Assembly: GCA_044892505.1 (NCBI GenBank)
Contig: CM097882.1
Span: forward strand, 203,670,001-203,734,000
Source of the DNA: Schmidtea nova
Lineage: Eukaryota
Direction of reading: 5' to 3'
DNA: 64,000 nt
Part shown: positions 377 through 1,511 of the stretch, piece by piece
How positions within the stretch are numbered: position 1 is the stretch's first letter
Layout of the letters: every line of letters starts with the position of its first letter
Program-made: the position numbers and the translations under genes
Notes under the pieces: generated by a model
Databases searched by the model: none
What the model saw: only the letters and a program-made list of their open reading frames with translations
Told to the model about the DNA's origin: nothing

Positions 377-727
377 TTATTTTGGAAATTCAAACTGTTC
401 CGAAACGGCTTTTACACATTTATTCAGCTCGGCTTTATTCGCGGCTAATTCGATCGATTGTTCGTCAAAAGCCCGTTGTTGGCGATCTTTTCTTTGTAGA
501 ATCTCTTTTGCAGCTGCAGGACAGAACCAACTGCGACGAAGTTCTTCCTGTTCAGCCCTTTGGCGGTTCACTACGCCTTTGAGAAGACAAATACGTCTGC
601 GCATCAGTTTAATCTCCCCTTCATTTACCAATGTACTTGTCCATTTTCTAAAATTAAATATAGTTGGAAATCCCGTTAAATTTAGATGATCGTGACACGT
701 CACTTTCAAGGAAAAAGATGCTCTCAA
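377..727 (-). CDS. ORF-B homolog (unknown coiled-coil accessory protein)
   Basis: QEELRRSWFCPAAAKEILQRKDRQQRAFDEQSIELAA aligns with HQRIKTTWFNPERVKAILQARYRAEQVADEQARDVAA in 40794-41030. Confidence 0.65.
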   Translation of the reverse strand: MRASFSLKVTCHDHLNLTGFPTIFNFRKWTSTLVNEGEIKLMRRRICLLKGVVNRQRAEQEELRRSWFCPAAAKEILQRKDRQQRAFDEQSIELAANKAELNKCVKAVSEQFEFPK

Positions 728-899
728 GGGTTTTCATTCGACCTCGTCTAAACTCGACTTTTATCCGTCATGATCACTCATTGGTACTACTCTCGTACTC
801 ATCCCATCGTTCAGGTCAACTATTTCACTCATACACTTTACCCATTTCACCTTCACTCCCAACATTCAAATGATTAACATTTCACACGAACAGATTTAT

Positions 900-1511
900 T
901 TAATTACATTGATAACTCAACACGATAGTTTTATATACTCCAGTCTTGTGCATATTTACTATTACTTCGTTGAATTCCCCTTTCGTCGTAGAATTCTGGG
1001 TTGGGGTTCCAACACAGTCTTCTATTGAACAGAAACCCCTCTCACCATGACATGGTAGACGCCATACTTTGACCTTCGACGATGCCACTTGATAACTTGA
1101 TCGGTAAGTTCGGATAGGTAATCGCTTCTCCCGTAATGACGTTCCGAAGGTAATCCAAGAGTATGTAGCCCAGGCGGTGCAATTCAGAATTTCCATTTTC
1201 CGAAAATGATTGAGCCATCGGGGTTTCTCGGTCTCATCATGGATCTCCACGAACCACTTCCGGCGACCTATCGCCTTCCAACGGTTCAAAAGCGGCCAAT
1301 GGAAATCTCCTTCCAATCGCAGCTTAAACTTCGGGTCATAGTTCTTTGACAGGGCATTCGGCATACCCCTCTCTTGACTCCAATGGCGCAAATGTCTCCC
1401 CGCTTGTTGCTGGATCTCCTTAGGTGCTCCGGTGTTCGTTAGTATCGGTTGCCATGCCTTAGTTGGGTAGGGGTTCTCTTCGCTTTCAAGAATGAGCATT
1501 TTGTGGTACAT
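900..1511 (-). pseudogene. ORF-A homolog (unknown retroelement accessory protein) with compensating frameshifts
   Basis: RHLRHW, LRLEGDFHW and KWFVEIHDETEKPRWL match RHLRRW, LRWEGDADW and RWFYQFVDDINQPRWL in 40047-40595. An alternative frame at about 1190-1080 reads LHRLGYILLDY..TGEAITYPNLP, matching FYQLGYLLLDR..TGEVQVYPNAP. Confidence 0.75.

Follow-up and report, generated by a model that had tools for sequence, protein, structure and literature searches.

The described system closest to the element analyzed here is Burro, a giant Gypsy retrotransposon of planarians that is described as about 29 kb long, with a gag gene carrying CCHC knuckles, a mononegavirus-type env between gag and pol, ankyrin repeats, and an accessory ORF upstream of gag (PMC6431247). 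The parts of the Burro account drawn on here name no gene inside the LTR (PMC6431247). In the MDG1 group of Drosophila Gypsy elements, a small accessory ORF under selection, sORF1, is reported to lie ahead of gag, with a short transcript that ends right after sORF1 and a protein that stains nuclei (10.1101/2025.03.14.642691). CERV of the C. elegans element Cer1 is reported to be made from a spliced mRNA and to be required for export of the genomic RNA; it is 517 amino acids long, shares exons with gag, contains three folded domains, and is encoded outside the LTR (PMC10309623). HIV Rev is described as a small protein that oligomerises, carries an arginine-rich helix, and is translated from spliced RNA, and its RRE as a structured element found only in the longer RNAs (PMC10309623). 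Finally, the major splice donor of foamy viruses lies inside the LTR beside a poly(A) signal, and the poly(A) site of the 5′ LTR is reported to be suppressed by U1 binding at that donor (PMC3694450).

The Schmidtea nova LTRs analyzed here resemble each of these systems in part. As with MDG1 sORF1, small genes under selection lie ahead of gag, but here there are two, ORF-A and ORF-B, both inside the LTR and each with a predicted splice acceptor and poly(A) signal. CERV serves as a functional model for ORF-B, for which a spliced mRNA is predicted, and the two are likened by description. ORF-B also has predicted counterparts of each of the Rev features, but it shows no clear homology to Rev (Pfam REV, PF00424, matched 1 of 22 members, at E 0.072) and no clear nuclear export signal. 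HTLV Rex shares the Rev-type features, and neither Rev nor Rex is known to be encoded in an LTR. ORFs that overlap the LTR include MMTV sag and HIV nef, which lie in U3, upstream of the promoter; ORF-A and ORF-B likewise overlap the LTR but lie downstream of the predicted TATA box and initiator, so that the sag- or nef-like position first suggested for them is not supported. The predicted donor of the planarian LTR adjoins a poly(A) signal as in foamy viruses, but it lies directly downstream of the signal rather than upstream, and the two genes and further signals come next within the LTR.

The window, by which we mean the whole stretch of DNA analyzed, is 64,000 nucleotides long and contains two copies of the LTR sequence, both of which are damaged. 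Its features are as follows.

391 to 2971, minus strand: copy 1, an LTR fragment of a diverged family, with its TG start at 2971 and broken off at about 391.
2525 to 2581, minus strand: predicted promoter of copy 1 (reverse CCAAT 2572-2581, TATA 2543-2553, initiator 2525-2536).
2419 to 2432, minus strand: leader AATAAA of copy 1, with a predicted splice donor immediately 3′.
937 to 1511, minus strand: ORF-A of copy 1, with a frameshift near 1190 and a stop in its C-terminal half.
392 to 653, minus strand: acceptor of copy 1 (641-653) and the N-terminal part of ORF-B, truncated by the end of the copy at about 391.
40088 to 41737, plus strand: copy 2, the 5′ LTR of a giant element, 5′-truncated and lacking promoter and leader, with its CA end at 41737.
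40089 to 40595, plus strand: ORF-A of copy 2, lacking its N terminus and followed by an AATAAA within 40641-40656.
40784 to 41361, plus strand: acceptor of copy 2 (40784-40791) and ORF-B, with an ATG at 40794, a frameshift at about 41003-41015, a stop at 41356, and an overlapping AATAAA.
41493 to 41737, plus strand: highly conserved, predicted structured RNA element at the 3′ end of the LTR.
41744 to 41761, plus strand: PBS-like site, which we take to resemble a tRNA-Pro primer site; such a site lies directly 3′ of the LTR end in 7/7 5′ LTRs.
42286 to 42767, plus strand: RING-finger accessory ORF 3′ of the PBS (Pfam zf-C3HC4_3, E 3e-9).
45283 to 60544, plus strand: polyprotein region with gag (CCHC knuckles), a mononegavirus-type fusion glycoprotein, PR-RT-RNase H-IN, and ankyrin repeats.

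The element that begins with copy 2 contains a pol in Gypsy order (PR-RT-RH-IN), a mononegavirus-type env in frame between gag and pol (PF24664, E 5e-54), ankyrin repeats (Ank_2, E 2e-12), and the upstream RING ORF. BCL2-like, MATH, and BIR domains gave no match in the window element in Pfam or PDB-sequence searches; the Burro review was partly annotated by HHpred. The polyprotein region is interrupted by stops in the window copy, one of them within env; the span from gag to env is open in a related copy, L130, and that from env to ankyrin in another, L129. We conclude that the window element matches a Burro-like giant Gypsy element, the two being likened by description.

Several other observations were made in the window. 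The ankyrin ORF downstream of integrase (57260-60544) ends in a hydrophobic segment that by eye resembles a membrane anchor, and it had no other family match. Positions 48959-52465 are repeated at 60494-64000, 11,535 bp apart, with 3505 of 3507 bases identical; the repeat continues in locus L046, where pol, ankyrin, and tail are repeated. This 3,507-base internal repeat reflects either an error of assembly or a tandem duplication that arose recently within the element. The long leader that separates the RING ORF from gag contains tandem repeats (19, 36-38, and about 85 nt) at 43458-43997 and 44286-44778. Related AT-rich, MITE-like hairpin elements adjoin both LTR copies (2973-3103 and about 39850-39990), and two host-type single-frame genes are present, a Mab-21 family member (37051-38337, minus strand) and a galactosyltransferase (13404-14375, minus strand).

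To place ORF-A and ORF-B relative to LTR boundaries, full-length elements were examined elsewhere in the genome. A search of the 1.25-Gb genome with ORF-A returned 2973 candidates, of which 150 were scored, all as strong matches, and about 26 same-strand pairs 16-33 kb apart were counted by eye. In seven full-length Burro-like elements chosen for checking, the LTR was a shared repeat of 3.15-3.28 kb that was 99.3-100% identical within each pair and began with TG, ended with CA, and was flanked by a 4-bp TSD in 7/7 pairs, although the TSD was uninformative in two (AAT repeats). LTR starts were 21-28 kb apart in all seven, which with the 3.2-kb LTR gives an element size near 30 kb. Both genes were inside both LTRs in 7/7 pairs, whereas the RING ORF followed the 5′ LTR copy only. 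When the seven full LTRs were translated, ORF-A (~211 amino acids) and ORF-B (~187 amino acids) were each a single open frame. Among the genome loci examined, none was a complete element of the copy 1 type with both LTRs; an LTR at L148 encodes an ORF-B 62% identical to that of copy 1 and is followed by a PBS as in copy 2 and by a RING ORF 67% identical to that of the window. We conclude with near certainty that ORF-A and ORF-B are real and are encoded by the LTR, as the first-pass annotation of the window had proposed.

The same annotation had reported protein motifs shared between 377-1511 on the minus strand and 40047-41356 on the plus strand, with a DNA similarity that was hard to see. Both observations stand: no DNA match between the ORFs of the two copies was found by BLASTN, while the N-terminal half of ORF-A was 32% identical between copies over 81 amino acids (pairwise E 3e-8), the C-terminal half of copy 2 ORF-A was 34% identical over 80 amino acids to another frame of copy 1 (E 3e-8), and ORF-B was 38% identical over 40 amino acids (E 0.01). 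The gene order, ORF-A then ORF-B, is likewise identical, but the two ORFs per copy need redrawing, as ORF-A of copy 1 is frameshifted with a stop in its C-terminal half and ORF-B of copy 2 is also frameshifted. Specifically, the frame at 40991-41356 and what had been drawn as ORF-B in the window are parts of one frameshifted gene, the single open frame of the full LTRs. Other boundaries shift too. LTR sequence of copy 2 begins at 40088 rather than 40047, and a PBS placed at 41642 would fall inside the LTR, which ends at 41737, ahead of the PBS-like site at 41744-41761. An acceptor proposed at 40783-40790 is conserved but lies one base further on, at 40784-40791.

Selection was measured on copies chosen for their open frames, among which 71 of 378 pairs for ORF-A and 42 of 210 pairs for ORF-B were unsaturated. 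For ORF-A, median dN/dS was 0.19-0.32 in bins where dS was at least 0.15 and 0.79 for the two closest pairs; for ORF-B it was 0.08-0.29. Of 12 comparisons that involved the window's own copies, 8 were unsaturated, and in these dN/dS was 0.07-0.40 in frame versus 0.42-1.98 in shifted frames, although in one comparison the shifted frame was nearly as low as the true frame (0.42 versus 0.40). Moreover, both genes are kept, in unchanged order, by families with only 20-35% identity in ORF-A. With dN/dS values mostly of 0.07-0.3, we conclude that ORF-A and ORF-B are under purifying selection, which had been suspected from the shared motifs. Far more diverged relatives of ORF-B were seen at L161 (the first match) and L094 (the second); in these the basic helix is retained while the TQT motif is absent, which suggests that additional LTR families exist.

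The AlphaFold2 model of ORF-A packs helix with beta sheet (mean pLDDT 68.5, pTM 0.67), and its alignment contains conserved tryptophans and a basic helix. ORF-B is modeled as two long helices (residues 9-113), a disordered linker in which a TQT motif lies, and a short helical end that is basic (pLDDT 71.7, pTM 0.29), consistent with a predicted coiled coil and arginine-rich helix. The TQT-like motif is kept in 40 of 50 copies, the basic core in 36 of 50, and a C-terminal motif in 35 of 50. Homologue searches found none for ORF-A and none for ORF-B, and no match in Pfam, NCBIfam, or PDB sequences reached the cut-off. A full profile search of 1.84 billion proteins returned two matches, both to tandem-repeat proteins, which were rejected (the one compared gave an hhalign probability of 18%), and atlas matches, with recognition below threshold, were kept as leads only. 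Pattern matches in metagenome and viral contigs were confirmed in 0 of 135 and 0 of 25 cases. The best results of fold searches were E 1.8, E 0.088, and Z 3.2 for ORF-A and a viral-structure match at E 0.68 for ORF-B; absence of a fold match does not show a new fold. We conclude that these are two predicted protein families without detected relatives by sequence, profile, or fold, and we assign no family to either, in agreement with the initial reading.

To describe how the two genes might be expressed, motifs were counted in aligned LTR rows, which are related copies rather than independent samples. A block of reverse CCAAT, TATA, and initiator near LTR position 390-440 is common to diverged LTRs; its TATA-initiator motif was found in 34 of 54 rows versus 63 of 1200 shuffles, in most of those 34 about 0.8-1.4 kb upstream of ORF-A. 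An AATAAA followed directly by a GT donor occurred about 100-145 nt past the TATA box in 23 of 33 promoter blocks, one spurious row having been dropped, versus 17 of 6600 shuffles. In 42 of 57 rows, a YAG was no more than 3 nt away from the ORF-B ATG (control, 324/12000, 2.7%), and 47 of 58 rows had an AATAAA at the stop of ORF-B (control, 601/12000, 5%). For ORF-A, an A[AT]TAAA followed the gene in 42 of 54 rows (control, 3063/12000, 26%), and a strict rule, run without a control, detected an in-frame acceptor-ATG ahead of it in just 17 of 53 rows. The RING ORF has the same layout from acceptor-ATG to stop-AATAAA (acceptor in 10/10, AATAAA in 9/9, mostly close relatives). Because they lie downstream of the conserved CCAAT-TATA-initiator block, ORF-A and ORF-B likely belong to the portion of the LTR that is transcribed (R or U5) and not to U3. 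The R/U5 boundary depends on which signal ends the genomic RNA, which may be the leader AATAAA, giving a short R with the genes in U5, or the ORF-B AATAAA, giving a long R. From these motifs and the LTR described next, we consider it quite likely that ORF-A and ORF-B are expressed from spliced, separately polyadenylated mRNAs. Four sequencing runs, which may or may not be of RNA, had no joint at the predicted splice sites among the joints listed, and we count this neither for nor against splicing.

One LTR appears to preserve the splice itself. In the 3′ LTR of 2307 nt at L168/L169 (G000:C3, about 55.204-55.207 Mb, minus strand), the leader is joined exactly to the ORF-A acceptor, and the missing GT..AG intron measures 862-940 nt in three relatives. 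GT comes next in 66 of the 70 promoter blocks that have an AATAAA..G motif; three others are point variants, and the remaining one is this LTR. The element is 5′-truncated within env, and no 5′ LTR lies within 30 kb upstream. Genome searches found no intron-less copies that join the leader to ORF-B or to the RING ORF and no poly(A)-tailed copies. The L168/L169 LTR is best read as DNA copied from spliced RNA, a single case that concerns the ORF-A splice only.

The LTR ends in a predicted RNA structure. The last ~250 nt were 95-97% identical in four of four family comparisons, versus 34-47% for the intron region, and an alignment of 29 copies indicated several helices, with double changes at 19 of 43 pairs, a level reached by 0 of 500 shuffles. 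Counted on the internal branches of a tree, 9 events were compensatory, 16 were one-sided, and 7 broke a pair; controls averaged 0.4 and 1.0 compensatory events, and in each 0 of 1000 reached the observed 9. Folding of single sequences was unremarkable (z -1.44), and Rfam had no match within the LTR. Since the element sits past the last AATAAA and adjoins the PBS, it may serve as a response element or as a signal for packaging or priming.

We suggest, at slightly less than an even chance, that the LTR carries an early regulatory cassette that is terminated within the LTR and in which ORF-B promotes read-through or export of the genomic RNA as a post-transcriptional switch. Transcription would start at about LTR position 420, and a leader of ~100 nt would be spliced by default to the acceptor of ORF-A, to that of ORF-B, or to the RING acceptor after the PBS, each short mRNA ending at its own AATAAA. 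Because the ORF-A and ORF-B mRNAs would each have their own AATAAA inside the LTR, 5′, 3′, and solo LTRs could all make both proteins. The short mRNAs would appear first, while full-length RNA would need both read-through and export while unspliced; a switch is called for because genomic RNA must skip the donor and pass the poly(A) signals. ORF-B might form oligomers through its coiled coil, perhaps with help from LC8 bound to the TQT motif, and contact RNA with its arginine-rich helix, and the structured element, which would be present only in read-through RNA, is its candidate target. ORF-A, a predicted alpha/beta protein with a basic helix, would likely be a nuclear partner or transactivator, which is the weakest step. 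A Tat/Rev-like role, as the first-pass annotation had it, is plausible for ORF-B. Tentatively, and with the chances somewhat against it, the LTR as a whole could be a self-contained early operon with one leader exon, alternative genes with their own poly(A) sites, a transcribed part of ~2.8 kb, and a structured RNA element through which its two proteins, both of new families, would shift expression from early mRNAs to genomic RNA.

Against a post-transcriptional switch, the splice is indicated by motifs and by a single genomic fossil, for ORF-A only; ORF-B lacks real likeness to Rev; and the conserved 3′ element, being beside the PBS, could simply be a packaging or priming signal. Moreover, the basic region of ORF-B fits N-x7-R, which we take to be the bZIP basic-region pattern, at least as well: N142 is invariant, and R150 is present in at least 90% of 22 sequences. 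The same early cassette might thus encode, in ORF-B, a DNA-binding transactivator of the LTR promoter, Tas- or Tax-like, with a bZIP-type basic region and an N-terminal coiled-coil dimer. We consider this unlikely. Pfam bZIP_1 matched the C-terminal 52 amino acids of the L035 ORF-B at E 0.004 and gave weak matches in 4 of 22 members, but the score was 17.7 bits against a cut-off of 27.6, and the L091 copy gave no match. No leucine zipper follows the basic region, where G160, S167, and L174 occupy the expected positions and the model has three short helices, and neither AP-1 nor CRE sites were conserved in the sequence ahead of the promoter (5/43 and 1/43).

The same architecture of coiled coil, TQT, and basic C terminus is found in filovirus VP35, and it provides the model for a different role, in which ORF-B binds double-stranded or small RNA and dampens piRNA/RNAi silencing while ORF-A blocks a restriction factor. 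Expression from every solo LTR would suit such host-defence antagonists, other host-directed domains are described in Burro (PMC6431247), and BURRO1 is reported to be upregulated upon loss of the PIWI protein SMEDWI-2 (PMC8532177). The conserved TQT of ORF-B also fits the LC8 motif core as described (PMC3078936), but the lysine at -3 is absent, neither sequence nor fold gave a match, and passage of the genomic RNA through the poly(A) signals is left unexplained, so we regard antagonism as improbable, about on a par with transactivation. Poly(A) choice might instead be made in cis, through U1 at the donor, and the two proteins might be cofactors of the particle or of reverse transcription, with ORF-B chaperoning packaging or the primer-site structure. 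An AATAAA directly before the donor in most promoter blocks comes close to the arrangement described for foamy virus (PMC3694450), the structured element abuts the PBS, and the predicted length of minus-strand strong-stop DNA is about 2.8 kb. Gag, however, already carries CCHC knuckles, and separate short mRNAs would suit early regulators better than stoichiometric particle proteins, and we consider such a role quite improbable. That the ORFs were captured from the host or are non-coding remnants is largely refuted and highly improbable: many copies are broken, but purifying selection is specific to the frame across the diverged families, and homologue searches found no host-type homologue.

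No description of genes inside Burro LTRs was found in the literature searched, although the 2018 genome paper, the 2026 Burro1 study, or their supplements may mention the ORFs. The Burro family is reported to have been studied for a role in stem cells and regeneration (PMC13465017, citing a 2026 study). The distinguishing features are that both genes follow the promoter, that they share a leader but have acceptors and poly(A) signals of their own, that one genomic LTR preserves the splice as a fossil, and that the RNA structure is conserved. Such genes are easily missed because LTRs are treated as non-coding and are masked by repeat annotation. If the early cassette with its post-transcriptional switch is correct, a Gypsy element would have reached the early/late control of complex retroviruses by another layout, with genes downstream of the promoter in the LTR that alternative splicing and polyadenylation resolve. 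Each solo LTR would in that case be a protein-coding unit that could supply regulators in trans genome-wide, and complex-retrovirus-style regulation of a Gypsy element would have been built entirely inside the LTR.
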